DNA of 64,000 nucleotides from Wickerhamiella versatilis (GCA_030867685.1 JAQOWU010000003.1:310001-374000), one strand, 5' to 3'; positions 1,799 to 59,052 are shown, numbered from the stretch's first letter. The notes: generated by a model not told the origin, from the sequence alone. Translations and numbers: made by a program.

Positions 1799-2911
1799 CT
1801 ATGGAATTTCTAGGACTAACTGGCCTGGATATTTTTTGGCAATAAAGTCCTTCTGTGCCTCAACGATATTTCCCAACGGATAAACCTTGCCAATCCGCGG
1901 CTGGATCTCGCCCTTATCTATGTAAGATACCAAGTTCTCAAACACAACGTCATCCTGAAATGCGCATCCAAAAAAGTACAGGTCCTTCAGATACACAGTG
2001 CGCATATCGAGCTGGACTATGGGCCCACCGATAGCACCGGCCACTGCATACCTGCCACCCTTCTTTAAGACATCCAGCATGTGATTGAAACCACTTCCCG
2101 CGACAACATCCAGAATCACATCGACTGATTCGTGGCCCACGGCCTTGACGATGTCCATGCCTCGCTCAACAACGTCATCCGCGCCGAGCTGCTGCACTTC
2201 CTGGAATTTTGGCCGGGCAGATATTGCGGTCACGGTTGCGCCTCTACGTTTCACTAGCTGGATGGCAGCTGTGCCAACTCCTCCAGATGCCCCAGTTATC
2301 AGCACATGTTCCCCTTTCTTGACACCTGCCCTATGGATCATACCCTCTGCCGTGGAATACGAACAGGGCACTGAGGCGAGTTCCACGCATGACAGGGGGG
2401 AGATAACCTTGAACACATCACTGGAGGGCGCTTTGGTATACTGGGCAAATGCCCCATCGCATTCCGAGCCATAAGTCCAACATTCGTAGGGTCGAAAGTC
2501 CACGCACGAGCGAAGCATCGTACGAACAAGCACCATTTCGCCAATACGTGACGAATTGACGCTGGTACCGACGGCCACGATGATACCACAACAATCTGCA
2601 CCCTGAATGCGTGGGAATTTCAGGGGCTCCCCCGACCATGTGGCGTCCTCGTCATTTATTGTGTTAAACCCCTCAGACCCTTTGTTGGTGCCATCAGTGA
2701 CTTTCTTTGAGTACCAGCCTATTCTGGTGTTTATGTCCGTGTTGTTAATGCCTGCAGCTGACACGCGAATGAGGACCTCATTCGGGCTGGGCTCAGGCAC
2801 GGGGATGTCATGGCGGTACTGGAGCTTATCGTATCCACCGTGGCCAGTGAGGTATACACCTGTCATTTTATTTGGAAGCGGGCTGGTGCCACCAAGTGAT
2901 TTTAATTCCAT
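1799..2911 (-). CDS. Medium-chain dehydrogenase/reductase (alcohol dehydrogenase/quinone reductase-like, MDR9-type), bacterial-like
   Basis: 370 aa; LTGHGG start, AAGINNTDINTRIGWYS, FPRIQGAD, GSECDGAFAQY, ITGASGGVG Rossmann motif, YLKDL. Confidence 0.85.
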   Translation of the reverse strand: MELKSLGGTSPLPNKMTGVYLTGHGGYDKLQYRHDIPVPEPSPNEVLIRVSAAGINNTDINTRIGWYSKKVTDGTNKGSEGFNTINDEDATWSGEPLKFPRIQGADCCGIIVAVGTSVNSSRIGEMVLVRTMLRSCVDFRPYECWTYGSECDGAFAQYTKAPSSDVFKVISPLSCVELASVPCSYSTAEGMIHRAGVKKGEHVLITGASGGVGTAAIQLVKRRGATVTAISARPKFQEVQQLGADDVVERGMDIVKAVGHESVDVILDVVAGSGFNHMLDVLKKGGRYAVAGAIGGPIVQLDMRTVYLKDLYFFGCAFQDDVVFENLVSYIDKGEIQPRIGKVYPLGNIVEAQKDFIAKKYPGQLVLEIP

Positions 2912-3116
2912 TAGAACCTCAGGTGATATGCTATCAAGGAGTTATTATACTGTGCACTGACTAATTTATCGCTTATCGATAGATGATTGTTCTCGGTTAT
3001 CGTTATTAGCCTGGAATTCACCGGCTAGGCAGCCTGATATACAGCCTGTGAAGTGCCAGGAAAACCAGAAAGCTCGGGCTTAATACCTTACTGATGTGAG
3101 TTCCCAACAGACCCGA

Positions 3117-3671
3117 TTAAGGCAGGTCACGGTTGGCATCAATTTCCTGATCGCCATCATGATAAGGCTCGTCGACGTTTGTAGCTTCAAGTGGATTGTT
3201 CCTCACCTCCTGAACCTTCAAGTAGACATATGTGGCTGCCGCCAGAATGTAGGGACCAAAGAAAAGGAAGAAAAGAAACCAGTAGCGAAAGTTATCGGCT
3301 TGCATAGGCAGCAGAATGACAAAAACAATGGCTTCCATGATCTCTGAGAGAAGAACAAGTGAGAACATTGTATTTTCAATGTTAGCTAGTCTGGGATCCC
3401 TTAAGATGTCTGCGTACCCAAGTGTGAACACTGCCAATTGGATAAAAATAATGATAGCTACTCCAAAGGCCCAGCCTTGGCCATGTCTCCATTCATATCT
3501 TCTTATCCCGACACCGAGGGAGAACAGGAGGAAGAAAAGCCCAGCCAAACCGTGAGTCGCATAGACCGTACGGACAGCTATTCGCTCCAGGTACGACATC
3601 CTTGCTCGATTCTTGTAAACTCTCTCCTTTGCATAGATCACGAGAGGCCACAATGTCTCCACAGATGGCAT
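3117..3671 (-). CDS. Hypothetical membrane protein (about 4 TM)
   Basis: 184 aa ATG ORF with four hydrophobic segments and an acidic tail; no family recognised. Confidence 0.6.
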   Translation of the reverse strand: MPSVETLWPLVIYAKERVYKNRARMSYLERIAVRTVYATHGLAGLFFLLFSLGVGIRRYEWRHGQGWAFGVAIIIFIQLAVFTLGYADILRDPRLANIENTMFSLVLLSEIMEAIVFVILLPMQADNFRYWFLFFLFFGPYILAAATYVYLKVQEVRNNPLEATNVDEPYHDGDQEIDANRDLP

Positions 3672-3768
3672 TGCTGAATGCGATGCAGTGTATGGCTATG
3701 ACTAAATGCACATGACGTCACGATTTCGAATAATTTGATAGGACTGATACGGATTAATCTAGATGCTA

Positions 3769-4548
3769 TTACTTAGTGGTGAATCCACCATTCAACAAGA
3801 TTGTCTGGCCTGTCATCCACCACCCATCAGAAATGAGGGTATGCACAAATGGAACGACGTCCTTCGCATCAGTGAGGCCCACCCCATTGTTGAATGACGA
3901 CAGTGCAGCGGCAGACTTGAGGTATGCCACAGACTCGGGCGTCTCCTGGCCATAGAAAAAGGGCGTGTCCATAGGACCCGGTCCAATGGCATTGACAGAG
4001 ATGCCTCGAGACCCATACTCCTGGGATGCTGCCCGGGTGAAATGCTCAACTGCTGCCTTGGATCCGGCATACGTCGAGTAGAATGGAGTGTATGCACCCA
4101 GGAGCGAGGTCACAATGTTCAAGATCTTGCCGTTGTCATTGACATATTTGCCGGCCTCCTTGACGAAGAAGAATGCCACCTTGGTGTTCACGGCGAACAT
4201 TTCGTCGTACTCCTCCTCGTCAATTTCGAGAATCGGCTTCTTTAGCACCTTGCCAACCGTATTAATTGCGATATCTGGCTTGCCAATGGCCCGCACCGTG
4301 TCCTTGAATAGACCTTCAACGGCCTTTGCGGTGGTCAAATCAGCCTGGATTGCCACAACCTTGCTGACGCCAGCACTTTCTAGCTCTGTGACAAGCTTAT
4401 CCGCAGACTCCTTGGTGGCCGCAGAATTGTAGTGAATGGCAATGGCCCTAGCCCCTGATGTAGCAACATCGCGGGCAATGAGAGCACCCAGGTTCTTGGC
4501 ACCCCCAGTAATTAGTACAGTTTTGTCCTTAATAGTGTGAGAAACCAT
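3769..4548 (-). CDS. Short-chain dehydrogenase/reductase, bacterial PRK12744-like
   Basis: 259 aa; TGGAKNLG, AIHYNS, PDIAINTVGKVLKKP, YAGSK catalytic YxxxK, GPGPMDTPFFY, GWWMTGQTILLNGGFTTK C-terminus. Confidence 0.9.
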   Translation of the reverse strand: MVSHTIKDKTVLITGGAKNLGALIARDVATSGARAIAIHYNSAATKESADKLVTELESAGVSKVVAIQADLTTAKAVEGLFKDTVRAIGKPDIAINTVGKVLKKPILEIDEEEYDEMFAVNTKVAFFFVKEAGKYVNDNGKILNIVTSLLGAYTPFYSTYAGSKAAVEHFTRAASQEYGSRGISVNAIGPGPMDTPFFYGQETPESVAYLKSAAALSSFNNGVGLTDAKDVVPFVHTLISDGWWMTGQTILLNGGFTTK

Positions 4549-4602
4549 GGTAAAACTTAAAGATCAACGAGGTCCCGGTGCACTCTTATATATTTATGCA
4601 GG

Positions 4603-4614
4603 CGGAGCGAGCCG
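4603..4614. promoter_or_regulatory. CGG-N6-CCG candidate Zn2Cys6 binding site in the SDR/TF divergent promoter
   Basis: CGGAGCGAGCCG, about 10 nt upstream of the SDR TATA element (TATATAAG on the minus strand, 4585-4592). Confidence 0.35.
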
Positions 4615-4963
4615 CCCGCGATTTCACCTTATTCATATAGATGTAAGCGTTTTTGCTGCTGCGATTTAGGACCATTTCTTGGATAAAATGCAGTATAAAT
4701 TGGTTTAATGGTGTTTCTGTTGTCATATATCCTTGTAAATGAGTTTTTATATCCGCCAATAAATCTGATCTTTCGAAACATCAATGGATATTCATGACAT
4801 AAAAACGCCCCGAACAAGCACATTCAAGCATTTCCAGAAGACTTAAGACAATGAGATTTGTGTTAAAATAGCACAGAAATACTTATCAGCTTGCCTGCCA
4901 TGAGCTCGGCTGTGATATCGAATGATTAACTAATAAACCTATTTAGTCGACGTTGGGCATGGA

Positions 4964-6640
4964 ATGAGCGATGAGCCGGCTAACAAACGGTATCGAAGCT
5001 CTCGCTACCTCACCCTGTCTTGTGAACGCTGCTTTACCATCAAGAAGAAATGTGACCGAGAAGTTCCCTGTGGAAGATGCGTCAAGGCCCACAAGGAATG
5101 CAGGTACACATACCCCGGGACCCAGGCAGTCCAAAATAGCTCTTCTGACCCATTGCATACCCCTTCATACTTATTGCAGAAACTGAACATGTCCGTACGC
5201 CTAGCTGTACAAAACTTTGATCAGGGCGAGGATCCCAGCGCCGTGTTACAGCGTCTGAAAAAAAGCTACTCAGGCATCGGTTCTGATCACCAGGCCCACG
5301 GGTACCAGGCCACACCACTAAAGAACCTTCCTGAGAGGAGTGAGGCTGCTCAGTTTGCCCGAAGCTATTTTGAGAATCAGTATGTATGGACGCCATTTCT
5401 CGACATTAGGGCCTGGTTCCAGGCTTTTGATACCGCATACGAGCCAGAAACCACTCTAACTACCCATGAAGCATTCCAGGTGTATATGGTACTGGCCATA
5501 GGTGCCCTTGTCCGTCCAACCAACTCGAATTCGGACTCAGACCCCCATGCTGATTGGTACAGGACGGCAATGGCTTTGGCATTGGGTGCCAAGGGAGCAT
5601 CCCCTCAGCAGCACGAAGCAATTGAGCGAGTAATACTGCAAGTTTCCTATGGCATTTTAAGTCCCCACAGTAGTCTATCTGACATGTGGACCATGGTGAA
5701 TACCGCGTTATGCCAAACTATGTCCTTGGGATACCACACCAAACATCACCCCAGTGTTGATCCTCATACTGCTGAATTGCACAAAAGAACTTTTTGGAGC
5801 CTCTACAATCTTGATCGATTGCTGTGCATGACCCTGGGCTTGCCCGCAAACGTGCAGGATGAGTACGTTGATGCGGAAATGCCCGAGGCTACTGAATATT
5901 TAGCAGACTATCCAGCAAGCAGCTGGCTTCCTGCCGTGGATCACATACCTTCCATCATTCGATTGAGTTATACCATGGGCTACATCAGTAGATGTGTGAA
6001 CACTCATGGAACGGACCTGATGGGTAATGTGAAACCCCCGCAGCTCACAGACCTCCTGATTATTGCCAATGAGTGGTTTGACAGCCTGAAGTCCCTGTCG
6101 AATCCCCCTTCCCCACTGCTTCAGCAGTTCGAGCTATATTATCACAACCTCATTGCGCTCAGCCTGCGACCCTCGCCATCCCATCCGGCAACACCGTCGG
6201 AACTTTTGGGATGGCTCCTCCATAGCGTGCACAAGAAAATCTCTATTTGCCATGATCTGCTGGTGAATGGCAAGGTGAGCTGGAATTGGGTATTCCTCTA
6301 CGGGACCATGCGAGCTGCGGTCGTGCTGCTATACATCCGCTTCAACAGCTCAATTGACACAAACATGGCTCTGTATCTTAACCTTATTTATGAGACGTTT
6401 GCAGCCTTTCCGGCCGACTGGCGAGTTGCTCACAACGCTGGTCGATGCATTGAGAAAATAACCGAGGAATTTGCGGCTGGCGACTGGTCCACGGCGGGGC
6501 AGGAAATTCTGGCGTTCCTAAGGGAATCACATGGCTCAGGAAGTGTCTACAACTCCGGACCTGATCTTCTTGGCAACTACGAAATGGTGACCAGTCTGCT
6601 GGCAGATTGGTTTGACCTTGTGAATGGTCTAGGTATTTAG
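4964..6640 (+). CDS. Zn(II)2Cys6 transcription factor with fungal MHR domain
   Basis: CERCFTIKKKCDREVPCGRCVKAHKEC binuclear cluster; MHR motif RTFWSLYNLDRLLCMTLGLP. Confidence 0.92.
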   Translation: MSDEPANKRYRSSRYLTLSCERCFTIKKKCDREVPCGRCVKAHKECRYTYPGTQAVQNSSSDPLHTPSYLLQKLNMSVRLAVQNFDQGEDPSAVLQRLKKSYSGIGSDHQAHGYQATPLKNLPERSEAAQFARSYFENQYVWTPFLDIRAWFQAFDTAYEPETTLTTHEAFQVYMVLAIGALVRPTNSNSDSDPHADWYRTAMALALGAKGASPQQHEAIERVILQVSYGILSPHSSLSDMWTMVNTALCQTMSLGYHTKHHPSVDPHTAELHKRTFWSLYNLDRLLCMTLGLPANVQDEYVDAEMPEATEYLADYPASSWLPAVDHIPSIIRLSYTMGYISRCVNTHGTDLMGNVKPPQLTDLLIIANEWFDSLKSLSNPPSPLLQQFELYYHNLIALSLRPSPSHPATPSELLGWLLHSVHKKISICHDLLVNGKVSWNWVFLYGTMRAAVVLLYIRFNSSIDTNMALYLNLIYETFAAFPADWRVAHNAGRCIEKITEEFAAGDWSTAGQEILAFLRESHGSGSVYNSGPDLLGNYEMVTSLLADWFDLVNGLGI

Positions 6641-7002
6641 ATAGATGATACAGTGCAACTAGCTGGTCCACCTGTTCATCAATGCCTAGTTCTTCAAATC
6701 TCTGTGCATGTTATTCCTACTTTATTCTCAGTGGATAACCATAACTAAATGATATATATCGCCGGTGCGATATCTTCTGTGGCAGAAATCGACATATGAG
6801 CAGATCATCGCATCGCTAGAAGTAGAAGAATTCACGATTGCTGCAACAAAATTTAGCGTATTCCCATTTTTAAAATACATTAATCATGTAGGCTAATGCC
6901 ATATAGCTTTGCATGCAGCCTACTCTCTGGAACATATATCTAGCATCTGCTCTATATGAAACAACGCCATGAAACCTCGCTGCATGGACGGTTTGCCTGG
7001 GC

Positions 7003-8238
7003 TCATGCAGGCAGCTGAGAACAGATAATCTCCAGCAAAGCCTTTCCTTCACCATTCTTGCCTGGCACGTTCACTATTTCGGCATGGGCATCCTTTTTCT
7101 CGAACCTGACTGCATATTTCTGCCATGGTAGCGTGTTCAGTGCTCTTAATTGCGCCTTTTTGACTTTTGACAGCGCAACAATCTTCGATGAGTAGGCTTC
7201 GGTTACAGGCTGGACAAGCGGTGAATTAGGATCGCCAGCAACAGTACTAGTAGTAACATTACTTTCGCCATTCTTGGTGGGTTCATCATTGCTCACCTCA
7301 GGTGCCGTAAGGCGCCGTGAAGAGAATAACGTATGCAATCGATCTATAGCCCGCTGATTATGGTAGCGGCCAAACGTCTTGTACCAGGCTTCCACCACGT
7401 ACCCCTTTATTGTAAGACCCACCACGGCACAGAGAGTGCACAGCTCGAGTAGAAGCGCAATGGGAACCGCTGGGATCGAAAATAGAGTTAGCACGATATA
7501 GCCCATGGGAGTTCTCTCAAAAGAAGCATGAAGTGGCCAAAGCGATAGGTTTAAGGGACGAGGTTCGGGGCTCTTTTCCACACTACCCGAATTGGTTAGC
7601 TCCTTTGTGCTATCTGGAGTATTGCAGAACGTCACCCCAGGCGGACATTCGAACGAATCCTCGTCCGTTATAAATGACGTCCAAAACGGCACTGCAGCAT
7701 CATTAACAGTATTAGAGATGAGATAAAGTTTGAATCTGCCCAATCCGCGCATTGCAGGTCCCGATAGATCTGCCAATCCCACCAGTAAGCCTTTCCTTCC
7801 ATCGGAGATCAGGTCGCGCCCTGTAGGGCCAAGAAGCGTTGATACTCCACAATTGAACATTTTTGACATAAAATCTACGTTCCAAGCCCTTGAACCAAGA
7901 TGAGGCGTGGCAAATGTGGCAAGAAAGCCCGCTTGGATACCAGTAGTCCCCCAGAAATCGGAATCCTCCAGGATTCCTACTAAATAGCGGGAAATTAGTC
8001 CACCAAGAGAGTAGCCAATGATCGAGAGCTTGCTCACCCCTTCCAGCTGTTCTATCAAATCACGATAAACCCGCCATGCATTCACAGAAATGCCATCAAA
8101 TGTAAGCACGCCTCTGATAGACTCGATTATGATGGTTTTAAACTTTCCGGTCGCTTCAAGAGTATCTCTTAAGGACCTCATATCATTCTTGTTTCCTAAG
8201 AGGCCATGGATTAGCACAACCAGGTGCAAGGAAGCCAT
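7003..8238 (-). CDS. DUF676 putative serine lipase (Rog1/Lpl1-like)
   Basis: HLVVLIHGLLG, GYSLGGLISRY (GxSxG), TFATPHLG, NDAAVPFWTS, AHAEIV. First ATG is at 8238; the track start is non-ATG. Confidence 0.85.
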   Translation of the reverse strand: MASLHLVVLIHGLLGNKNDMRSLRDTLEATGKFKTIIIESIRGVLTFDGISVNAWRVYRDLIEQLEGVSKLSIIGYSLGGLISRYLVGILEDSDFWGTTGIQAGFLATFATPHLGSRAWNVDFMSKMFNCGVSTLLGPTGRDLISDGRKGLLVGLADLSGPAMRGLGRFKLYLISNTVNDAAVPFWTSFITDEDSFECPPGVTFCNTPDSTKELTNSGSVEKSPEPRPLNLSLWPLHASFERTPMGYIVLTLFSIPAVPIALLLELCTLCAVVGLTIKGYVVEAWYKTFGRYHNQRAIDRLHTLFSSRRLTAPEVSNDEPTKNGESNVTTSTVAGDPNSPLVQPVTEAYSSKIVALSKVKKAQLRALNTLPWQKYAVRFEKKDAHAEIVNVPGKNGEGKALLEIICSQLPA

Positions 8239-9675
8239 CCTGTCGCGCCTTGCAGCACGAACCAAACAAGGGTTGGTTGGTTTGTGATGACTTACGCGAT
8301 ATGCAGATTAATGTTAATAACGGTCTCACCGGCATCTGAGATCACTAGACGTGGAATAAGCTTCCGTTTAACTCAAAGCCCTCACTCTACATGCTGCATA
8401 CACAAGAAGTATGTCTGATCTGCAATTCAGCATGTTTTGGGCTATTCCGCTTAGACCCACAATCTTTCACTACTAGACGCAGCCTGAGTGTATCGGATAA
8501 ATGTACTGTATGGAGTGGTATTCTGAAGTTGAATACTATTCCATCTACCAGAGTTTAATACGCGACTAAAGCCATTGATTCCTAGGAGAACTTTTTGATC
8601 TACATCTCCTTTATGCCGCATTACTCAATATGGTAGCGTTTCAGCATATAACCCAAATAAAAATAAACGAATATTAACGATGTCCACTACTGCAGATCTC
8701 ACATTACCTGTCATCATTTGGTCTTGATGCCTACTTCCTGAATCTTTACAGATTGTGGGACTATCACCTGGATGGTGATATGCTATAGGAAATGGTGAAA
8801 GAATTGGCCGACGAGGTTTCTGGTATGCTAACGCTCGGAGAATCCTAATTGATCCCCAAATGAATTTTATTCCCATGAATCAGGCCGAACGTATATCATC
8901 GTAGAGACGAGCATACTGATATGTTGTGATCTCATTCAGACACCTTAGCTAGCTAGCATCTTTAGATTAATTGGTACTCAGAAGATCGCTTTCAGTGCAT
9001 ACTAGCCTGTTGAGGACAGGATAAGAATGATTCCAGCTATCACCTTCGCGCATGACATTTTTACTGAGAACCGTGAATCTCGTGCTGAAAGACAGGAAAT
9101 CGAGAAATCCCGGTTACTGTATCGTGGTAATATGATCGACACCTAGTATAATTGTGCACATGTGTTTTTCTATCAATCACACGTACTGCATGTGCATATA
9201 TGTATACGCCTATGAGTGTGTGTAAAACAAGCTGATAGTGCTATAGCAAAATATTCCAATGCACCAGCGCTATTGTAACACGCCAGCTATCCCTATATCA
9301 GTCAATCCATTTAAATACGTGCTTAAATCAGGCAAGAGCCAGCGTAGCCTGATGAAAATCGTAGCTAATTAGCCAGCCCTTACCACCCGCACTCTTCCGT
9401 ACCCCTAACCTTGATGGTATCAAGCATCCGAGTGAAACTTGGCCCTGACTTGTAGTTTGATGCCTTTTCCACACCAATATAGCCTCAATTAAGAGGTTTT
9501 CTTATAAACCCGTCGAAAAAAACGCGTGAATATCTACATGAACACCTTGAAATTCTTAATCTCAATACACGTGTGAAAGACGGTATGTAGGGTTTGGTTT
9601 ATAAACAGATAGAAATTCCAACATTTAGGCAAGAAGCTATCCGATTAACTTATTGTTTATCCTAGGCATCTGCAG

Positions 9676-11607
9676 ATGGTGATCGCCATGCGTTTTATAA
9701 CATTTCCAGCAGCCTTAGGATTAGCACTAGCGGGTTCTTCATCCATCAGGCCGTCCGCTGCGAATTGGTCGATTCCCGCGACTCCTACCTTCCAAAGTCA
9801 TAATACCACGGTGTTAACCCTTACGAGCACATCGGAAACAGTCTCGACTTTCACTTCATGGTCTTCTGAGACGCCATCTGAGTTGGTAATTACCGAAACC
9901 AGTTGGTCCCCAGGCCATCCCGTCGCCTACACGTCGATAGAATCCATTCCTGGATCAGTTTATCCCGTAGAGAGCGTGGAAACGTTTTCGAGCAGCGGGT
10001 CTGAGACGCCAGCTGCCACGACTTCCAGTGAAGGTTCAGGTAGTAACTCCGGTAATGGATCTGGCTCTGGCTCGGGTTCTGGGTCCAGCTCCGGCTCTGG
10101 CTCTGGTAGTGGATCCGGCTCTGGCTCGGGTTCTGGGTCCAGCTCTGGATCCGGCTCTGGCTCTGGCTCTGAGTCTGGATCCGGCTCTGGAAGTGGTTCG
10201 GGTAATGGCGGTACTGGCTCTGGTCAGGGTGGATCTGGCTCTGGCTCTGGCTCGGGTTCTGGTGAAGGTGGTTATGGAGGACAAAATAATAATGGAGGCG
10301 AAGTCGCGACTACCATAGAGTGGGAGTCTGCTCAGCCAACAGAATCACTGGTCACAGGTCATAGCTGGGCCTCTGGAAGCGAAGTAGTGTCAAAATTGAC
10401 GCTCACGATTCACTCTTCCGATGGTCCCATCTATCCCATAATTGGATCATCCACTTTGTTTCTACCAGCCACGACTACGATCACAATTGGGGAAGATTTA
10501 CGCCCAACTGGTACGGCATCTGCAACAAGTACAAGTACAAGCTCGTCACTCCCAACTGCGCACTCCAATAATGGGACCAGGTCCAGTTCAGCGCCCCGGA
10601 TATCTTCCCCACCATCGGCCTCCGCATCGTCATCTGCGCCTGCGTCGTCGACCCGTCCACCCGTTAGCTCGTGTGTCCCATTCCCATATGTTGGCCCTGG
10701 AATGAACGTAACAGAATTTAGACTTGAACAGGCACAGTGGACGATCGACCAAGAGCAAACCTCGCGAATAGATATTGAATACTATGCTGACTGTGAACCT
10801 CTCTACAGGACTGGTCAAATTATGGATGACCTTGACATAAATCTACCGAACAAGGCCAAGAAGTTCCCTGTAGACGGATACGTGAATGGCGAAGCAGTCT
10901 GGTTCACAGAAACACCCAACCGTACTAGAAGCGACCCAGTTATTCTGTATCTCCACGGAGGTGGTTATATGTGGGGATTGCTGCCAAACCAAATAGATAC
11001 CTTGAGAGAACTGAATGAACGAATCGACAACCCTCGTCTATCCTGGTTGATTGTTGATTACACGCTGACGAACAAGGAAAAGTTCCCTCAGCAATTCAAG
11101 GAAACCGTTAACACCTTCAACGAGTTGCTTAAAACGTCGGATAATATCATAATTTTCGCCGACTCGAACGGCTGTCACCTGGCCTTGCTCCTCTTGTGGC
11201 AAATGCACCACGCACTGAACTATGAGATTGCCCCAATTCCTAAGAATAATGCAACTAGGGCGATTGCTCTTGCTTCCCCATGGACAGACTACACTGGTTA
11301 CGAACTTGTACTATGGGTATACGCAGCGGGAATAGATATCTTTAGCCAAAACTGGCAATTCCCAACCTATAACATGGCTCAGCATTCGGACCCAGCCTGG
11401 AGTGAAATTTTCCCTAAAGAGGTGTTACTTGGGTACGGCCAGGATGATAGTGTGGTCAATACATCTCAATCTATCATCAATATGGCGGGGTTGAGACCTG
11501 ACCAGTATTACGTGGAGCCAAATGGACAACATGATGAAATGGTTGTCAAGGGCAATGAGACAGTTATTGAAAAATTCGCAACGTTCTTGTCGAAGGTGGC
11601 TGCTTAG
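9676..11607 (+). CDS. Secreted alpha/beta-hydrolase (Say1/HSL-like esterase) with Ser/Thr- and Gly-Ser-rich N-terminal half
   Basis: Signal peptide, ~300 aa low-complexity stalk, then [23 protein letters not shown] nucleophile elbow, ASPW, GQHD. Confidence 0.85.
10033..10265 (+). repeat. Coding Gly-Ser repeat (GGCTCT units) with a 54-bp higher-order duplication
   Basis: GGATC(T/C)GGCTCTGGCTCGGGTTCTGGGTCCAGCTC recurs at 10057 and 10111. Confidence 0.9.
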
Positions 11608-12469: not shown

Positions 12470-12505
12470 GGTCAGTCGAGGCCAGTCGAGGCCAATCGAG
12501 GCCAG
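12470..12505. repeat. Short 10-bp tandem repeat (GGCCAGTCGA-like, about 3.5 copies)
   Basis: ggtcagtcga ggccagtcga ggccaatcga ggccag. Confidence 0.7.
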
Positions 12506-12637
12506 GCCAGGATTGGCACTGTCCTTAGGTCCAAGCATAGGAAAGCACTATATAGCATGTCGGCATTCTACCAATGAATACTTTTATCTATATTATTCTT
12601 AGAGACAAATTCATTGCAGCAGCTCTATTATAGTGGT

Positions 12638-29667: not shown

Positions 29668-29696
29668 GATAGAAATGATAAAATCGATAAAGATAA
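29668..29696 (+). promoter_or_regulatory. Cluster of four GATA(A/G) elements upstream of the multicopper oxidase
   Basis: GATAG 29668, GATAA 29677, 29686 and 29692. Confidence 0.35.
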
Positions 29697-49391: not shown

Positions 49392-50879
49392 ATGGCTCAG
49401 GTATTATCTGCTAAGACATTGAACAACCTTCCTTCCCAGGTGCATGTGCCTTCATATGATAGAACGAAAGTCACCCCCGGCTACGTTCACATTGGGGCAG
49501 GAAACTTCCACAGAATGCACCAGGAAGTCATAATGAACAAGGTACTCTCGCAGCCTGGTAATGAGCATTGGGGTGTTGTTGGCGCCGAGATGCTGAGCAC
49601 ACCTGGCTCTGTGCAAAAGTCGGCGAGCCTGAAGGCCCAGGATGGCCTATACACCTCCACAGAATACGACTTCGAGGGTAAGCCTAGTACGCAGGTTATC
49701 GGCTCGATGATCGACTACGTCCATGTGCCTGACGATCCTGCGGGTTTTATTAACCTGCTCAGCTCGCCAAACATCCGCATCGTTGGTCTTACCATCACGG
49801 AGGGTGGCTACAACATTGATGAGGCCACCGGCAAGTTCCGTGTCAACTCTGAGGATGTGCAGCACGATTTGAAGAGTGATATTCCTAAGACGGCATTTGG
49901 CTTTATCGTCAAGGCTCTGGAGCGTCGTCGCCGGGCCGGGATCCCGCCGTTCACTGTTATGTCCTGTGACAACCTCCGTCATAACGGTGACACTGCTCGC
50001 AAGGCCTTGCTCGGATTTTCTGAAGCCGTGAGCCCTTCACTTGCTGAATGGGTTGAGGACAACGTCTCGTTCCCTAACAGCATGGTGGACCGGATTGTGC
50101 CTTTTGTGACGGAGAAGGAGTCCCATCGTCTAAACCAGCGCAGCGGTATAAACGACCAAGCTCCGGTTTATGGCGAAACTTTCTTGGAATGGGTTATGGA
50201 GGACAAGTTCTGTAATGGCAGGCCGGATCTCGCTGCTTTCGGGGTGCGGTTGCGCAATGACGTGTCACTCTTCGAGACGAAGAAGGGCCGCATTTTGAAC
50301 GCGTGCCATACATTCCTCTCGTACCCCGCTATCCTGAGTGGTATTGAGATTGTTTCTGATGCGATGAACAACCAGCCGATATATGGCTTCCTGACCCGTT
50401 TGTTGGGCCGGGATATTCTGCCAATTCTTGAAGGTCCACCTGGTGTGAACTTGCACGAGTATGCCGATATCGTCCTCCAGAGGTTCGGCAACGCCGCTAT
50501 TGAGGACCAGACCTTGCGTCTTGGCCACTTCGGCTCTGCCAAGATCCCGGTCTTCCTCCGGGCCACCATCGAAACTCTTATTGAGGAAGACAAGGACATC
50601 GACGGAATTGCGTTCTTCATCGTATGCTTTGCCCGTTACCTCAACGGTGTTGATGACAAGGGCAACAAGTTTAAGGTTGTCGAACCGGCCCTTTCAAAAG
50701 AGGACTGGGAGGAGCTGAAAGCTGCAGATGGTCTTGGCGTACTTCGTACCTCAGTACTCTCTCCTCTGCATCTTGATAAGAACCAAAAATTTGTGAAGGC
50801 ATTCCATCACGCTAATGAGACAATTGCCAAGGTTGGTGTTCAGCAGGCCATCATTGATGATACGACTGGCCGGTGGTAA
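49392..50879 (+). CDS. Long-chain mannitol/D-arabitol/sorbitol dehydrogenase (polyol-specific family), bacterial-like
   Basis: VHIGAGNFHRMHQ, LKAQDGLYT, LTITEGGY, FTVMSCDNLRHNG, FPNSMVDRIVP, EWVMEDKFCNGRP, KGRILNACH, RFGN.AIEDQ. Confidence 0.9.
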   Translation: MAQVLSAKTLNNLPSQVHVPSYDRTKVTPGYVHIGAGNFHRMHQEVIMNKVLSQPGNEHWGVVGAEMLSTPGSVQKSASLKAQDGLYTSTEYDFEGKPSTQVIGSMIDYVHVPDDPAGFINLLSSPNIRIVGLTITEGGYNIDEATGKFRVNSEDVQHDLKSDIPKTAFGFIVKALERRRRAGIPPFTVMSCDNLRHNGDTARKALLGFSEAVSPSLAEWVEDNVSFPNSMVDRIVPFVTEKESHRLNQRSGINDQAPVYGETFLEWVMEDKFCNGRPDLAAFGVRLRNDVSLFETKKGRILNACHTFLSYPAILSGIEIVSDAMNNQPIYGFLTRLLGRDILPILEGPPGVNLHEYADIVLQRFGNAAIEDQTLRLGHFGSAKIPVFLRATIETLIEEDKDIDGIAFFIVCFARYLNGVDDKGNKFKVVEPALSKEDWEELKAADGLGVLRTSVLSPLHLDKNQKFVKAFHHANETIAKVGVQQAIIDDTTGRW

Positions 50880-51282
50880 ATGCCATCCTCAACTGGGATG
50901 ACTTAAAAAAAACTCAAAATGCGATCAAGGATTGCTGCTGTATTATTTAATATCTTCGGAAAACAGATGTGCTCAATTAGATGTAGTTTTAAGTAATTTA
51001 TTCTATCTTTTAAGGAAACACCCGAGGCAGGCAGGCCAGCAGAAGTAGAATTGGTGGTGAAGCAGTATCCTCACACGATGTGAGTACACTATTCCTTTCA
51101 TTTCTCCAATCACTATGCAATAAGACACAATATTCTTATCACTACCCCGGATTAATTGCGCGAATCCGGAGGTTTTAATATGACAGTAACACCGATACCG
51201 GGCCGACACCGGTATCAATCTGACTAATGACTCGTAATAAAAGTCGATGCTCGCATTGCGTTGCAGCCATTCGTAATTGACA

Positions 51283-52104
51283 ATGACAACTTTCAGTGAA
51301 AATTCGTATAATTTTGAGAACTACCTAAAGTTTCGGCCCACGTATCCATTGTCACTATTCCAGTGTCTGCAGGATTACATAGGAGAGCCGGTTATCGAGG
51401 CAGTCGACCTTGCTTGTGGGACAGGCCAAGCCGCCCAGGAGATAGCGAAATTTTCCAAACACGTCACTGGTATAGATCCATCTGCAGGTATGATTCAACA
51501 AGCCCCTAAGTTGCCAAATGTTGACTATATGGTTGGAAGCGATGCTACCATCACCGAGCTAGTTCCCCCACACTCGGTGGATTTAGTTACAATAGCAGAA
51601 GCCCTGCACTGGATGGATTTTCCGACGTCGTGGTCGCGAATACATCAGATTTTAAAACCTGGTGGGGTCTTTGCCGCCTTTTCATACTACCTTTTCACTT
51701 TTGTTGACCACCCGGAGTCAGGCCCCATTATTGCAGACTTCTTTCTCGGCGAGGATAAATGTGCACCGTACTGGGATAAAGGACAACGCCAATTAAACGA
51801 CCTGTATGCCGAAATTAAAGTGCCAACCCAATACTTTTCTGACGAGGTCCGTGTGATCAATTCGAAAGATCAATTGGCCCGTGACCATCCTTTTGAAATC
51901 ATTAAATACGACGTTCCAGTGAGACAAATGATAAATATGATGGCAACCTGCTCCGGCTACCACAACTGGAGAAAGGCCAACCCGGGCAAACCGGACATAG
52001 TTGCAGAAACCGAAAAGAGGCTCTTAGCCGCAACAAAACTTTCCCTTGATTCAAAGGTCACCGTTAAATATGAGTCAGTTTATATATTTGCAAAGGCTAA
52101 GTAA
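51283..52104 (+). CDS. Class I SAM-dependent methyltransferase (Tmt1/Crg1-like)
   Basis: Y..FRPTYP, VDLACGTGQ, GIDPSAGMI, SVDLVTIAEALHW, LKPGG, PYWDKG, TCSGYHNW. First ATG 51283. Confidence 0.88.
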   Translation: MTTFSENSYNFENYLKFRPTYPLSLFQCLQDYIGEPVIEAVDLACGTGQAAQEIAKFSKHVTGIDPSAGMIQQAPKLPNVDYMVGSDATITELVPPHSVDLVTIAEALHWMDFPTSWSRIHQILKPGGVFAAFSYYLFTFVDHPESGPIIADFFLGEDKCAPYWDKGQRQLNDLYAEIKVPTQYFSDEVRVINSKDQLARDHPFEIIKYDVPVRQMINMMATCSGYHNWRKANPGKPDIVAETEKRLLAATKLSLDSKVTVKYESVYIFAKAK

Positions 52105-52157
52105 GTGCTGGACGTAATATTATATAGTTGTTTCTAAATCAATATAGCGCGTCGCCT

Positions 52158-54431
52158 TTAGTTATGGAGGTCGAAGCGGTCAAGGTTCATAACATGGTTC
52201 CAAGCACTGATGAAGTCCTTGACAAACCGCTCCTGACCATTTGCGCTGCCATAAACTTCGCATACCGCGCGAAGCTGGGCGTCATGGCCGAAGATAAGGT
52301 CAACTCTGGTAGCATCCCAAAGGTGTTTGCCAGATTCACTATCAATACCTTGGAAACGGGTCTTCTTCTCATCGACTGGCTTCCAGGACGTGAATGGGGT
52401 TAGAAGATTTACGAAGAAATCGTTCGTGAGAGCACCTGGCTTATCAGTGAACACACCAAGCTTCGAGTTGTCCCAGTTCATGCCCAAGACACGGAGACCA
52501 CCGACAAGTGCCACCAGCTGTGGGGGGGTCAAGCCGAGCAGCTGCGCACGGTCAACAAGGAATGCTTCAGGAGTAACCTTGGTGGCGACGTTGTCCAGTT
52601 TTTCGTAGTTCCTGAAGCCATCGATGATGGGACGTAGCCACTCAAAGCTCTCAATATCCGTATCCTCCTGGGTGGTGTCGGCACGGCCAGGGACGAACGG
52701 CACCTTCAAATCTAGACCGCCCTTCTTGATGGCGCCCTCGATAGCAGCAGCACCTCCAAGGATGATCAGGTCAGCCAGTGATACCTGCTTGTCGCCAGAC
52801 TGCTTACCATTGAACGACTTTTGTACGCCTTCCAGAGCGCTTAGGACCTCCTCAAGCTCAGCAGGGTTGTTCACTTCCCAGTCCTTCTGAGGCGAAAGAC
52901 GGATACGTGCACCGTTGGCACCACCACGATAATCAGTAACGCGGTGGGTGGATGCAGATGCCCACGCGACCTTGGCGAACTTGATAGGCTCAACACCTGT
53001 CTCAAGGATGGCGTGCTTCAAGCTTGCGATATCCGAGTCATCAATAAGGGTGTGGGTGACAGGGGGAATCGGGTCTTGCCAGATAAAGTCCCTCTTGGGC
53101 ACCTCAGGACCCAGATACCTTATCTTGGGACCCATATCACGGTGAGTGAGCTTGAACCAGGCCTGGGCAAATGCCTCAAGGAACACTTCGGGCTCATCAC
53201 GGTACCTGCGGATAATCTTGTTAAACTCAGGGTCGTCCTTCAGCGCAATATCCGAAGTCATCATCATAAGTGGGTTCTCTTTACCGGCGATGTGGGCATC
53301 AGGAGTTAGCTCCTCCTTCTTGATCACCTTTGGCTTCCACTGATTGGCGCCAGCAGGACTCTTTGTCACCTCCCACTCGAGGTCAAGCAAGTTGTCGAGA
53401 TACTCACTATCCCATCTAGTAGGGTGCTGTACCCATGATCCCTCAATACCGTTCGTCATGGTGTACTGAGCATTACCTGTGCCGGCCTTATTGATCCAGC
53501 CCAGTCCCTGGTGCTCAATTGACGCGTTGGTGGGAGGGGGTCCAACATTGTCCTTAGAAACGGCACCGTGACTCTTACCGAAGGTGTGGCCACCAGCAAT
53601 TAGCGCTACAGTCTCCTCATCATTCATCGCCATGCGCCTGAACGTGTTACGAATATCACGGGCAGATCCAATTGGGTCCGGGTTCGCCGCAGGACCTTCG
53701 GGATTGACGTAGATCAGGGCAGCTTCCGAATTAGAGAGAGGGTCCTCAAGGTCATAGTACTTGTCCTTGGGGGTTCCGTGCCAGCGGCCACGGCCAAAGT
53801 CCTCGGCAACCTCTGGTCCCCAGTATGTATCGAGATCGGGTTCCCAGGCATCAACTCGTCCGCCGCCAAAGCCAATGGTCTTGGCGCCCATGCTCTCAAA
53901 TGCAACGTTGCCTGCGAGCACTAGCAGGTCTGCCCAGCTCAGAGAATCACCGTACTTCTGCTTGATGGGCCACAGAAGTCTACGAGTCTTATCAGTATTT
54001 CCGTTGTCAATCCAACTGTTGATAGGCAGGAAGCGCTGCAACGCATTGCCTGCACCACCACGACCATCAGCAACCCGATAAGTACCGGCAGAGTGCCACG
54101 AGGTACGAATCATCTGCGGTCCATAGTGGCCGTAGTCGGCTGGCCACCAACTTTGCGAGGTGTGCATCCACTCGTGAAGGTCCTTCTTGAGCTGAGCGAA
54201 GTCGATCTTGCTGAAAGCTTCCGCATAGTTGAAGTCTGGTCCATATGGATTAGATTTTGGCGAAGGCCTGCTAAGGATTTCCACATGAACGTCCCGAGGA
54301 TACCAGGCCTCAACGGCAGGTCCAGTGCCTTGAACACCACCTATCCTGGTTCCTCCAAATGGGCAGGCTGAAGCCTTGTTCTCACGTGTTGAGAGTTTTG
54401 GCGAAGAGCTGTCGAGATATGGGCAACTCAT
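52158..54431 (-). CDS. katG: Catalase-peroxidase
   Basis: CPF N-terminus, WWPADYGHYGP, RTSWHSAGTYR (distal R/W/H), LIYVNPEGP, RMAMNDEETVALIAGGHTFGKSHG, AWFKLTHRDMGP, GGANGARIRL, VMNLDRFD. ATG 54431 is preferred over 54479 because a TATTTAA element lies at ~54494-54500. Confidence 0.95.
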   Translation of the reverse strand: MSCPYLDSSSPKLSTRENKASACPFGGTRIGGVQGTGPAVEAWYPRDVHVEILSRPSPKSNPYGPDFNYAEAFSKIDFAQLKKDLHEWMHTSQSWWPADYGHYGPQMIRTSWHSAGTYRVADGRGGAGNALQRFLPINSWIDNGNTDKTRRLLWPIKQKYGDSLSWADLLVLAGNVAFESMGAKTIGFGGGRVDAWEPDLDTYWGPEVAEDFGRGRWHGTPKDKYYDLEDPLSNSEAALIYVNPEGPAANPDPIGSARDIRNTFRRMAMNDEETVALIAGGHTFGKSHGAVSKDNVGPPPTNASIEHQGLGWINKAGTGNAQYTMTNGIEGSWVQHPTRWDSEYLDNLLDLEWEVTKSPAGANQWKPKVIKKEELTPDAHIAGKENPLMMMTSDIALKDDPEFNKIIRRYRDEPEVFLEAFAQAWFKLTHRDMGPKIRYLGPEVPKRDFIWQDPIPPVTHTLIDDSDIASLKHAILETGVEPIKFAKVAWASASTHRVTDYRGGANGARIRLSPQKDWEVNNPAELEEVLSALEGVQKSFNGKQSGDKQVSLADLIILGGAAAIEGAIKKGGLDLKVPFVPGRADTTQEDTDIESFEWLRPIIDGFRNYEKLDNVATKVTPEAFLVDRAQLLGLTPPQLVALVGGLRVLGMNWDNSKLGVFTDKPGALTNDFFVNLLTPFTSWKPVDEKKTRFQGIDSESGKHLWDATRVDLIFGHDAQLRAVCEVYGSANGQERFVKDFISAWNHVMNLDRFDLHN

Positions 54432-54987
54432 CTTCTCAATTGATCTAGAGGTATACGCTGTGCGACGAAAAGCCTTCATTTAAGGGAGATGTCTTAAATA
54501 ACGCGAATATCGTTCTAGGCCCTTGACCCTTACCTTTGCTGTCAGTGGTTAGGGCTATGGAAACGGTGGGAAGTCCCCACGTCCGACAATGCCTAGATTT
54601 TAACAGGAAACAATTATATATAATGTATCCTATTGCTTAACCACACACTGGGCAATATATTTCAAATGTCTACTGTGCCATAGGAGTCGCTCAATGAGAC
54701 TAAATGCGAGTCTAGGGATTCATATATGACTAAACACGTTTGTAACGGAAATTGCTAGTCCTGGATTGGTTGCGGCCAGGGATCTGGTGGGGGAGGCGCA
54801 ACAAATTCTAGACGAGTAAGACAATTTGAAATCAAAATATTCTAGAATTCATGATAATTACTCATCTAAGTTTAAGCACCGTGGAGAAAACAAAACAAAA
54901 CAAAAGAGAAAATTAAAGGGCATAACGAAATAAATCATAAATAAAACGTCTATAGATTGCATCATAGTAGATAGTGGTATCCAAGTG

Positions 54988-55509
54988 TCATACAGATATA
55001 GTGCTGGGATGGTGGGATTCCTTGAATCTCTCAGCTTCGACCCATTCCTTCACCCACGCAGCATAAGCCATCTTGACACGGTCTTTGAGACAGAGGTCGC
55101 TGACGATCAGCAGTACACTGAACAAAAGTGTTGCAATAATTACGTGGGTGTTCCACCCACCAGTGATCGATATTGAACCAAGAAAAATCAAGATTCTGGC
55201 AGGCACAACAAGCTTAAAGTTAATGGCCCGGATAAATGGGTCATTCGCCTGGATCTCGTAATAGTTGTACCATTCATCTTCCCAATTCTCACCACAAAGC
55301 TCCTCCATTTTTCGGTTCTCATAGCCTTTGCCCTTAGCCTCCAGCACCAGACCTATCGTACATGTGACTTGAGAAAATAGCAGAGCCTTAAAGCCAGAGA
55401 AGAAATTTATCACACTCCCCAGCATGAGTGCAGCACCTGTCAACCATATTTTCTTATTTCCTTCCACGTAGGACCGTAGTGGGTAGTTTTTGGCGCGCGA
55501 ATCACCCAT
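54988..55509 (-). CDS. Hypothetical membrane protein
   Basis: ORF with two pairs of hydrophobic segments; first ATG 55509. The 5' end is uncertain (possible 3' splice site at ~55532). Confidence 0.55.
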   Translation of the reverse strand: MGDSRAKNYPLRSYVEGNKKIWLTGAALMLGSVINFFSGFKALLFSQVTCTIGLVLEAKGKGYENRKMEELCGENWEDEWYNYYEIQANDPFIRAINFKLVVPARILIFLGSISITGGWNTHVIIATLLFSVLLIVSDLCLKDRVKMAYAAWVKEWVEAERFKESHHPSTISV

Positions 55510-56022
55510 TGGTGGCAGGGGAGCACTCAAGCTGTAAGATTTATTTTTATTAGTAATAACTAGCCACTGGATTGTAGATCTGTCTTGTTGTCATAACGTC
55601 CTGAAACATTCTTTTTGCATAATTTCAGCTATGTTACACAATACCTAACTTCCTAACCCCTTTATTATTTAACATTTAGTGGCACCCATCAGCGCCACTG
55701 GGATCTGTAACCAGTCACAAGATCTACTGAGGAAAGTTCGTTAAAGTCAATATTGATTCTAATCTAAGCGAAAAGTAACATAACAATGTTGGCAATTGCT
55801 TAAAATTTTTCACTATGCATTGTACTATATAAAATTGGCAACTGCCTCACCTGTCCCTCTGCAAATGGTTACGTACGATAACGTCATTTTGGGGAAAGAA
55901 ACCTGTGAGAAGCTAATATGTGTGGCTAGTTATGTAGCGGGACTAGAAGGTGATTCAAAAGAAATTAGGACATAGCAAGTCTACTGTAGTTTAGCTTTTA
56001 TACTCTACTTTAGTTAACGCAC

Positions 56023-57054
56023 TTAATTCCAATTCTTTTCCTGTTCCAGAATGCTCTTCGCAGTGTCCACAATTGTCTGCTCGAGCGTGTGATACTTGAG
56101 TCCAGATTGTTCATTGGTCTGAGAATTGTCGTACTTGGCCCAATTCGCAGCATCTGCAGCGAGATCGTAGCCCGCAGGTGCATGGGCTATCTTGAGATCC
56201 GGGAAATTCTTGTTGAGAATCTGCAAACCCGCATTGGGAGACATGTATCCAGCAACAACAAACCAGCGTTGTTCCTTAGCAGTCTCTTTCTCTAGAGCAA
56301 TGACATGGGCCAGCGCCACCTCGCGGACATCAACCTCCAAGGACTTTAAGCTGTTGTCAGTATTTTCACCTGGGGAAGATTTAAGCCACTGATACACGAA
56401 CTTGTTCGAGGTATTGAGCTGATCCGCCGATTTAAGTGGCTGAATCAAAGGCCCAATGACAAGAGGAGGGTTAACGGTAGTGGCGGTGAAATTCGGCTTG
56501 TTCTCCTCGATAAAAGTCCAGAGAACTTCCTCAGCAAGTTTCTTCGACGCGGTGTAGGTAATCTTAGGATCCTTCGTGGCCTCTTCGTAAGTGAAAGGGT
56601 TCCAGCTCTTCTCCGTATATTTATCCTCCGGGTTGCTCATCCGGGTGGGCTTGGTGATCGCCGCGAACGACGAAGTCACCACAACGTGCTTTACCTGCGG
56701 GCCATATGCCTTGATCGCCTTTAGGATATTGGTGGTTCCATGAATCGCAGGCTTCAGGATCTTGTTCTCAACATCCTCACTCGGATGATAAAATGGAGAA
56801 GCAGTGTGCAGGACGTAGGTGATCTCCTTGTGATTCTTGATGACCTCGTCGAATGCGCCCTCCTTAGCAATATCCTCAACTGTCACCAGCTTGAAACGGT
56901 CTTGACGGGACTTATAGGCGTCCACGAGCCATTGGGCCCTCTCAAGCGACCTCACTGTACCAATCACGTAGTAGCCGTGATCAAGCAGTATTCCCAAGAT
57001 GTGGGACGCAATGAAGCCAGTGGCGCCTGTCAACAATACAGTTTCTCCTGCCAT
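56023..57054 (-). CDS. NADPH-dependent aldehyde/methylglyoxal reductase (Gre2/Ari1-like extended SDR)
   Basis: VLLTGATGFIA, VIGTVRS, VLHTASPF, VVVTSSFAAI, YTASKKLAE, VNPPLVIGP, LNTSN, VDVREVALAH. Confidence 0.9.
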   Translation of the reverse strand: MAGETVLLTGATGFIASHILGILLDHGYYVIGTVRSLERAQWLVDAYKSRQDRFKLVTVEDIAKEGAFDEVIKNHKEITYVLHTASPFYHPSEDVENKILKPAIHGTTNILKAIKAYGPQVKHVVVTSSFAAITKPTRMSNPEDKYTEKSWNPFTYEEATKDPKITYTASKKLAEEVLWTFIEENKPNFTATTVNPPLVIGPLIQPLKSADQLNTSNKFVYQWLKSSPGENTDNSLKSLEVDVREVALAHVIALEKETAKEQRWFVVAGYMSPNAGLQILNKNFPDLKIAHAPAGYDLAADAANWAKYDNSQTNEQSGLKYHTLEQTIVDTAKSILEQEKNWN

Positions 57055-58176
57055 TCCGAATGTGTGAGTGATACAATCACTTGATTTGTAAAGCTATTTA
57101 TAATGATAACCTGGCAGTACCCGCCGGCGGCTATTGCCCTTCGCACTGACAATCACGTGATACTATCCCTATGGATACCGCAAACGAGTCGACCAGAGAA
57201 AGATCTGAACGCAGGCAGAAGCCGTGGTTTGATTTTAAACTTAAATTTATCTCCATTAATTAACCATAGCCTCAAGTGAAATGCTAGATTCGTTAGTCAG
57301 TGGTATGAATTGAACTTCGTGGTGCATGACAGAAAGAAACTGAGATCTTAGGGAATTGCATTGCGTTATTAGGTCCCGGCCCGGCTGGCATCCAGCTCAA
57401 CCAAACAATACTGTCCACAAAACTTAAGACGAAATACGTTAAGGCAATAGAAACCTCAATTTAGATTAAGGAAAGGACACCCTGTCCCCATGAGATATGC
57501 CTATAAAGATACATTAAACTCCAAGGCCTGAATGGTCATTTGGCTCTGAATCTAACAAGTTCTCGAAAGTTCGCTTGTGAGCTCTAAAATGCTGCAAGAG
57601 TGTGGCTTAACGTAATCAGCTCCGGTCTAGACCCTCGCTAATGTATATTACTCAGACTTCGGGAAAATTGTTGTCCCATACTTTCGAAAGCCGATCCGCA
57701 TTGGCATTGCAAGACCATACATAGCAATGATGTAGGTCGTTGGTACAACCCATAAAAATTTAGGTTCCTAAAACCACCAATAGCGAAAGTGAAGATAATT
57801 ATATTCTAAAATGCTTCTCGGCAGTCGAACTTGTCGGTGTTTAACACGATAACGTCGGATGACTAGTGAAAAAAAGGCTAAGAGACTTGGGATTTCATGC
57901 GAAATGTGTAGCTGGATCCGTAGTTTTCACAATGGCAAGGAAGGTTAAGCGGTATTTGATATTCTTTTGACCCTACAACTGCTTGTATCTCCTCAATGTT
58001 ACTGGTTACAAGCGCATATCGTATTACTCCCTTCGAATTCAAATTGTCGTTAGAACCGTCGGGAATTAGTTGTTATCGAGGTAAGGTTAGGATATCATCA
58101 ATCTATTACAAAAGCACATAGGTTAGTTGCTATATAAGGCTTAGTGTAAACCTACTTCCTGTCCGGATCAGAAACA

Positions 58177-59052
58177 ATGAGCAAACCGACAGTTGCAGTA
58201 TTGGGATTGGGTACAATGGGCCACCCATTCGCGGCTAACCTGATCAAAGGTGGGTTTGACGTCTGGGTGTGGAACCGCTCACCTGGTAAGGACGAGGATC
58301 TCGTAAATGCTGGTGGCAAACGTGCTAGCTCAGCAGCCGAGGCAGCAAGTAAGGCTGAGGTGGTGATCAGCATTCTTTCCACAGCCGAGGTGACGGAATC
58401 AGTACTGCTGGGCCCTAATGGCGCTCTCTCTGCCATGGCAGATGGAAGCGTGCTCGTACAGATGGGCACCATTGGCGTTGAGGCTACTGAGCAACTCGAT
58501 AAGAAGGTCAGTGCTGATTTCCCGAAAATTGTGTTGGTAGATGCGCCTGTTTCAGGAAGCAAGGTGCCTGCTGAGAAGGCCCTTATTCTTGTCCTCGCAA
58601 GTGGTGATGAGGAAAAGGCCAAGGCGACTGAGCCTATTTTCAAGACCATTGGCAAAGGAGCTCGCTGGCTTGGTCCGGTTGGCGCTGGAAGCCGCATGAA
58701 GCTAGCAGTGAATGCTTGGTTGATCGTTATGATGCAGGGAACCATCGAATCAGCTATGTTGGCTAAAAGCTATGGCTTCTCTCCTAATGACTTCTGGTCT
58801 GTCCTCGAAGGCGGTCCACTGGCTGCACCTTTCCAGAAGCCAAAGCTGGCTAAGATTGCTGAGGAGAACTATTCAACCGAGATGGCCCTCGAGTGGGGTC
58901 TCAAGGACGCTATTCTTGCCCTGGATACATACAACCCAGAACAACTCCCCAGCCTTTCGCGCATTACAGAAGTCTGGAAGCAGGCCGTGGATGCCGGTTT
59001 GGGTGAAGAAGATATTAGCGTTGTGAACAAGTACCTCGAGGAAAAGAAATAG
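58177..59052 (+). CDS. NAD(P)-dependent beta-hydroxyacid dehydrogenase (3-hydroxyisobutyrate DH/GarR family), bacterial-like
   Basis: VAVLGLGTMG, WNRS, QMGTIG, DAPVSGSKVPAE, MKLAVNAWL, GGPLAAP, LKDA; no mitochondrial presequence. Confidence 0.88.
   Translation: MSKPTVAVLGLGTMGHPFAANLIKGGFDVWVWNRSPGKDEDLVNAGGKRASSAAEAASKAEVVISILSTAEVTESVLLGPNGALSAMADGSVLVQMGTIGVEATEQLDKKVSADFPKIVLVDAPVSGSKVPAEKALILVLASGDEEKAKATEPIFKTIGKGARWLGPVGAGSRMKLAVNAWLIVMMQGTIESAMLAKSYGFSPNDFWSVLEGGPLAAPFQKPKLAKIAEENYSTEMALEWGLKDAILALDTYNPEQLPSLSRITEVWKQAVDAGLGEEDISVVNKYLEEKK

Follow-up and report, generated by a model that had tools for sequence, protein, structure and literature searches.

Probable retention of old bacterial gene transfers in a strain-variable chromosome-end block of Wickerhamiella versatilis

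Yeasts in the clade Wickerhamiella/Starmerella (W/S) have received whole operons horizontally, including those for enterobactin and thiamine. In wine strains of Saccharomyces cerevisiae, the subtelomeric horizontal gene transfer regions A, B, and C are large, strain-variable end blocks of metabolic genes, recent and near-identical to the donor yeast. For W. versatilis, Brito et al. (2026, PMC13376923) count 222 genes of bacterial and 133 of Pezizomycotina origin, piled up in End domains: long, AT-rich (OcculterCut), weakly expressed regions adjacent to telomeres. According to that paper, xenologs stay under 70% identity to their donors; one strain represents each species. Its list includes katG among the xenologs of W. 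domercqiae and St. bombicola, and xylB among those of each of the three species covered. (Below, "published" refers to this paper, in the text and tables available.) Here we consider 64,000 nucleotides of W. versatilis DNA, termed the window (C3:310001-374000 of a 9.88-Mb genome; C1, C3, C4, C7, and C8 are contigs of the same genome), in which seven bacterial-type genes are interleaved with fungal ones. The window is probably part of an End domain, in a distal, accessory block some 376 kb long that would have retained old transfers; the published strain most likely lost this chromosome arm.

Genes to the right of the window are colinear with published genes 05301-05276, with few local differences. 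On published scaffold03, from a long-read assembly, the telomere occupies positions 1-410, and the midpoints of 05301 and 05277 lie at 3232 and 56766; here the same genes lie at about C3:379.3 and 433.4 kb. The offsets, 376.0 and 376.7 kb, place the window beyond the published end of chromosome 3. Gene runs on C1 and C3 keep the order of the published W. versatilis table, and the nuclear contigs total about 0.43 Mb more than the published chromosomes. The available table lacks katG and a K+ channel, and lists xylB, mtlK, and LAD once each. Three genes sampled within the block (α-galactosidase, arabinofuranosidase, and RIB5) each duplicate, at 60-68% identity, a gene with a single entry there.

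In runs X5 and X8, which belong to two independent studies, one 59.8-kb contig each spans the whole junction (C3:371-381 kb), with 140 differences; a contig from X16 with about 95% identity extends across the predicted break. The junction was compared in four runs; X12 covered 12 of 30 bins and was uninformative, and runs with shares below 0.2 were not used. Fifteen of the 24 listed runs contain at least half of the words of 49301-59100; they are mostly food fermentations, and four may be the source. Very likely, other samples carry the block attached to chromosome 3, and the published strain lacks it. The spanned junction, together with the genes missing from the published table, indicates that End-domain content varies between strains by hundreds of kb. 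Other ends differ too, as the C7 right arm is about 200 kb shorter, and the left arm about 95 kb longer, than published. (The C7 right end and the C8 start share an inverted subtelomeric stretch.) Literature outside subscription journals yielded no account of a difference of this kind between strains. What is new is the lack of about 376 kb at strain level, whereas the gene density pattern described below is already published.

Terminal loss in the published strain is the most likely cause of this difference. A terminal break at about C3:376.5 kb, near the 3′ end of a GH127 gene, would have been healed with a new telomere. That the predicted break lies near the 3′ end of an intact bacterial-type gene favors loss there; this GH127 gene is a probable eighth xenolog. 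No telomere seed longer than 10 bases was found near the predicted break. Two ideas drawn from the published numbering were rejected. The 05301/05302 step, considered as a translocation point, is merely a numbering boundary, because 05302 onward lies on C7 here and 05308 on published scaffold02. Equating the seven genes with published genes 02763-02789, a guess from identifier spacing, fails because the annotations differ.

The features are as follows (ORF, open reading frame; MDR and SDR, dehydrogenase/reductase families).

1..64000: whole window, inside the ~376-kb distal block very likely absent from chromosome 3 of the published strain
1656..1776, plus: dispersed 5S rRNA gene, just 3′ of the MDR gene (RF00001, 77.6 bits)
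1799..2911, minus: MDR (NADPH:quinone-reductase-like), Rhizobiales-type; 63-70% identity to bacterial rows
3769..4548, minus: SDR (PRK12744), putative Acetobacteraceae donor; 435.9 bits, cut-off 296
12638..12949, minus: membrane protein, 103 amino acids, of a proteobacterial family without known function; 13 plasmid records, best 50.5%
16265..17716, minus: xylulokinase XylB, actinobacterial type, second genome copy; TIGR01312 score 374.2, just below the cut-off of 380.25
18696..24666, strand not assigned: pentitol genes of fungal type (LAD, AKR, LAD, SDR) adjoining XylB; best PDB match of the first LAD is L-arabinitol 4-dehydrogenase
36967..38664, plus: two-pore K+ channel, fungal marker gene, without counterpart in the published strain's available table
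39055-39072, strand not assigned: 18-bp fragment of the 41-bp repeat
49392..50879, plus: mannitol 2-dehydrogenase, MtlK-type, second genome copy (family profile, homolog list, tree)
52158..54479, minus: catalase-peroxidase KatG, two domains; NCBIfam score 993.5, cut-off 770.25
58177..59052, plus: β-hydroxyacid dehydrogenase (GLYR/HIBADH-like), bacterial type; 50.7% to Klebsiella records
59503..59544, plus: isolated copy of the 41-bp repeat; 0 matches in each of 10 shuffled windows
C3:374328-376652, strand not assigned, just right of the window: GH127 with bacterial Ig domains, bacterial type; 42.8% to Paenibacillus

A first-pass annotation, made from the window's sequence, had noted at least seven intronless bacterial-type ORFs, each separated by clearly fungal genes. 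All seven are intact and open over the extents listed. Pfam and NCBIfam assign families to the MDR, SDR, XylB, mannitol dehydrogenase, KatG, and β-hydroxyacid dehydrogenase proteins; the 103-residue protein has none. Fungal neighbors include Zn-cluster, ferric reductase, Say1, Arf-like, GT31, and two-pore K+ channel genes. Interleaving is therefore borne out, but two spacers (3117 and 54988) are orphans without a Pfam family; comparison of ORF 3117 with plasmids gave no match. The intronless state, although real, is not diagnostic, because adjacent genes also are long single ORFs. Five of the seven are redox enzymes, as claimed, yet so are 7 of the 24 other window genes.

The claim of high density also holds. 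Among 31 non-overlapping ORFs of at least 100 codons, the seven exceed the species-wide frequency (222/5603; p=1.7e-4) and that of the middle run in the published table (18/2512; p=8e-9). They match the end-type runs (14/65, 38/174, and 19/91; together 71/330, about 22%; p=0.82), as tallied from the tables of Brito et al. 2026 (PMC13376923). Since window density equals that of the published end-type runs, the pattern itself is already known. The low gene density of an End domain also is seen: the window's coding fraction is 0.63, versus 0.67-0.90 in 18 inner 10-kb samples. The GC content of the block is 43.8%, versus 45.3% in the inner samples. GC at third codon positions does not set the seven genes apart from the other 24 (0.54 versus 0.50, p=0.17), and no tRNA was found in the window.

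Sequence comparisons assign the seven genes to bacteria of several groups. Top homologs of KatG, MDR, MtlK, and SDR came from all-source libraries; XylB, the β-hydroxyacid dehydrogenase, and the 103-residue protein were compared with bacteria-only collections, with the published table, Atlas clusters, and PDB scores as further support. Gene trees cover SDR, MtlK (55 rows: 53 of 120 matches, plus two yeast rows), and MDR (42 of 118 rows, with the MFS part of two Aureobasidium proteins trimmed); P0154 and P0155 were left out for internal duplications. Best matches do not fall among broadly distributed fungal orthologs: among 120 matches each, the organism-named rows are bacterial in 22 of 22 cases for KatG, 19 of 19 for MtlK, and 33 of 35 for MDR, the last mostly Rhizobiales.

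The SDR is identical at 195/259 residues (75%) to an Acetobacter senegalensis protein. In its tree it nests in a bacterial clade, joining all 15 Acetobacteraceae among 80 bacterial rows (SH-aLRT 100). XylB is 44-50% identical to proteins of Streptomyces, Nonomuraea, and Arthrobacter, and 44% to that of Varibaculum. The plasmid records matching the 103-residue protein come from Rhizobiales and Burkholderiales; its three top Atlas clusters are 100% Bacteria, with a recognition score under threshold. Scans for donors gave 80 loci at 50-58% and no donor for KatG, one distant locus for XylB, and five for the β-hydroxyacid dehydrogenase. Bacterial origin from different donors, as first proposed, thus stands, with Acetobacteraceae for SDR, a Rhizobiales type for MDR, and Actinobacteria for XylB. 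None of 80 SDR and 80 KatG bacterial loci carries a homolog (at least 45%) of another of the seven genes. The lack of co-located homologs at these 160 loci argues against operon transfer; with the genes unlinked at donor loci and the donor groups differing, the earlier judgment that this is no single operon was sound.

Some of these enzymes invite functional assignments. The best PDB match of XylB is a xylulose kinase (434.5 bits), so it probably works like a xylulokinase despite its sub-cut-off TIGR01312 score. With its fungal LAD, AKR, LAD, and SDR neighbors it makes up 16265-24666, an apparent mosaic pentose/pentitol cluster. (The resident xylB on C1 likewise adjoins a LAD.) KatG has all of its predicted catalytic residues: R-W-H, Y, M, H, W, and D, in what we take to be the distal triad, the M-Y-W adduct, and the proximal H-W-D set. 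Its N-terminus (54432-54479) carries an Arg/Lys/Ser-rich extension before a second Met, as does that of its 85% homolog P0035; this extension possibly serves organelle targeting.

Several observations point to old transfers that were retained or duplicated here. XylB has a paralog (78%) at C1:758004, whose neighbors match published gene 04184; the β-hydroxyacid dehydrogenase has one (71%) at C8:170179; and MtlK has one (64%) on C7. The C7 protein is identical at 493/495 residues to W. versatilis BBD06025.1, which agrees with the initial placement of the host in the W/S clade. The MtlK homolog list begins with four yeast-like rows (99, 73, 67, and 65%), followed by matches at 55% or less. These four form one clade (SH-aLRT 100), with MtlK nested among bacteria. 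Within it, the window protein pairs with P0273 (72.7%), and the W. versatilis resident with P0274 (77.8%), a topology that implies one transfer, then a duplication older than a species split. The available text of PMC11140947 has no mention of xylulokinase or mtlK. For KatG, the best non-self rows stand at 85% and 65%. The 85% KatG homolog and the 72.7% MtlK relative share the same longest contig size, 94,809 bp, which suggests old linkage. Only one cluster of the nearest KatG and MtlK homologs names an organism, Chamaesiphon.

The first-pass annotation had also proposed a landing zone for repeated independent transfers. Different donors are supported; arrival at this site is not. Given three paralogs elsewhere, and katG and xylB xenologs in other W/S species, the site attests to retention of these genes, whose arrival here is not demonstrable. 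Presumably, most transfers were old and brought single genes into W/S ancestors; end regions that are poor in genes, weakly expressed, and non-essential would then have retained, duplicated, and reshuffled the transferred genes. High density would follow from retention in a dispensable compartment, rather than from targeted integration.

Several points weigh against this account of old retention followed by loss. The direction, loss rather than gain, is an inference, and the published strain was compared through gene tables rather than DNA. There is neither a telomere nor a terminal array at C3 base 1. The window, at 45.7% GC, is not AT-rich. The SDR, at 75%, tops the published 70% ceiling for donor identity and may have arrived here later; MDR reaches up to 70%, and the other five genes are at 65% or less. 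A DNA-level paralog of MDR, SDR, or KatG was not found in the genome, and none was seen for the 103-residue gene. Finally, fungi enter the KatG, XylB, SDR, MtlK, and β-hydroxyacid dehydrogenase comparisons only through database rank and PDB scores.

A true landing zone would require repeated integration at this site, for instance at telomerase-seeded breaks near a chromosome end that were then rejoined. The differing donor groups fit this idea, and so, in part, does a 41-bp repeat. For a yeast telomere this unit is long. Terminal arrays of C1 and C4 consist of it, and published telomere tracts of 410, 121, 329, 410, and 206 bp approximate multiples of 41. Pattern searches gave 69 and 146 matches genome-wide. 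Of 41 isolated copies, 35 sit on small contigs or no more than 420 kb from inferred ends (27% of the sequence), and 29 of 36 have the polarity of their own arm's telomere. In 310 kb of the block there are 32 fragments, 18 of which end in one 5-base register (p=3e-9), as would be expected of a template boundary. (Clustering in the start register was discarded as biased by the search pattern.) However, polarity within the C3 block is weak (19/32), and the fragments do not mark the seven genes: only two lie in the window, one of them beside a bacterial gene. Together with the paralogs elsewhere and the xenologs common to W/S species, this makes repeated landing unlikely. The fragments instead bear on position and age. 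The first 100 kb of C3 carries 20 of them, the window 2, and inner samples totalling 180 kb also 2; this rise toward C3:1 places C3:1 near a chromosome end, and 32 fragments in the block imply its long residence. Much less firmly than the strain difference, single template-length copies may mark breaks on which telomerase acted before rejoining, and ends might so grow and collect foreign genes. Perfect isolated copies of 46-50 bases, one unit plus a short overlap, occur at C7:2634272, C7:2636513, and C8:309261; one of the three could be the telomerase RNA template.

Alternatively, the whole block could have come from another W/S yeast by introgression or yeast-to-yeast transfer, bringing its xenologs and second copies, including native RIB5. 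All six paralog pairs compared (XylB, MtlK, β-hydroxyacid dehydrogenase, α-galactosidase, arabinofuranosidase, and RIB5) fall at 60-78%, and the window MtlK is nearer to P0273 (72.7%) than to the resident copy (63.8%). Yet the block contains the host's own 41-bp repeat, partly decayed, whereas published tract lengths suggest other repeat units in the two other published species. The 5S rRNA gene, 23 bases from the MDR stop, matches resident copies, which are many and near-identical (up to 100%). (A 133-bp dispersed repeat at 1655-1787, considered as a mobile element, is this 5S rRNA.) Moreover, a run diverged by about 4% differs equally on either side of the junction (86/2000 versus 70/1617), and no near-identical donor was seen. 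We regard a yeast donor as improbable, on a par with repeated landing, and prefer old transfers retained in a host block.

Passage of several genes through filamentous fungi, or their identity as ordinary fungal orthologs, is very unlikely. KatG and mannitol dehydrogenase families do occur in moulds, and the remaining two named MDR rows are from Aureobasidium (65-66%). That grouping is absent from the best tree and appears in 0% of 200 bootstrap trees, but is not rejected by the approximately unbiased (AU) test (p=0.089); MDR may have come by a fungal relay. In contrast, no fungal name appears among the named top matches of KatG or MtlK. The best PDB scores of KatG (903.8 bits) and MtlK (401 bits) exceed those for 5whq (853) and 7rk4 (295), which we take to be fungal structures. 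The 120th KatG homolog still scores 971, and SDR nests in Acetobacteraceae.

Contamination or chimeric assembly can be set aside: no supporting evidence was found, fungal genes and the 5S gene interleave with the bacterial-type genes (as first argued against a contaminant contig), of the eight window proteins located in the collection, seven are clustered with a protein on a 57,783-bp contig and six with one on a 1,348,231-bp contig, and part of the window recurs in the fermentation runs described above.

Other features of the window and block deserve mention. A sugar transporter (13752-15516) has a C-terminal part that continues in another frame, and a 13-bp tandem repeat at 14054-14086; the frame shift could be a strain lesion or an assembly error. 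ORF 33073-35337 encodes a secreted 754-residue protein without a Pfam family, for which the Atlas gives links to clusters of ascomycetes and of bacteria and a weak one to GDE_C glycosidases; considered as an eighth bacterial gene, it has a top Atlas cluster that is 87% eukaryotic and a Granulicella homolog at 39.7%. A Gly-Ser repeat (10047-10262) lies within a Say1-like secreted hydrolase, and a 63-bp duplication (60837-60971) within the long tail of the Arf-like gene. Farther out, C3:122-145 kb contains a four-gene riboflavin-synthesis cluster with a multicopper oxidase, ferric reductase, ABC transporter, and ferroportin, possibly for flavin-based iron uptake; its RIB5 is the second copy, at 68%. 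A secreted 228-residue ORF at C3:51.6-52.3 kb may resemble the NLP/NPP1 family.

The strain difference has several consequences. The published 222 bacterial genes are a minimum for the species, and strains of this food-fermentation yeast differ in KatG, in additional enzymes for polyols and pentoses, and in a K+ channel. Genes 05301-05276 lie 3-57 kb from the telomere in one strain and more than 376 kb in another. This permits a direct test of whether End-domain repression is positional or a property of the domain; the block is a natural test of whether repression follows telomere distance. A bolder picture remains tentative, and we would not favor it: End domains as an accessory compartment whose turnover involves segments of hundreds of kb, with this arm (about 4% of the genome) in food-fermentation populations, and growth through telomerase-marked breaks.

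Compared with the operon transfers of W/S yeasts, the window shares the clade and donor types, but its seven genes are unlinked in their donors and come from different groups. Like S. cerevisiae regions A, B, and C, the block is a large strain-variable end block of metabolic genes, but its paralogs stand at 60-78% and it looks long resident. The W/S katG, xylB, and mtlK xenologs (Supplementary Data 6-8, PMC13376923) are of the same families and are classed as transfers from bacteria; there, however, katG is not listed for W. versatilis, and xylB and mtlK are single rather than double. The nearest likeness is to W. versatilis's own End domains (PMC13376923): the same species, an interleaving of bacterial with fungal genes, a preponderance of metabolic enzymes, a bacterial-type density of about 22%, and low gene density. 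The block differs in its absence from the studied strain, so that these gene copies are not in the published list, and in an SDR above the 70% ceiling. It adjoins the left End domain of published chromosome 3, and would extend that domain from 76 kb to about 450 kb.

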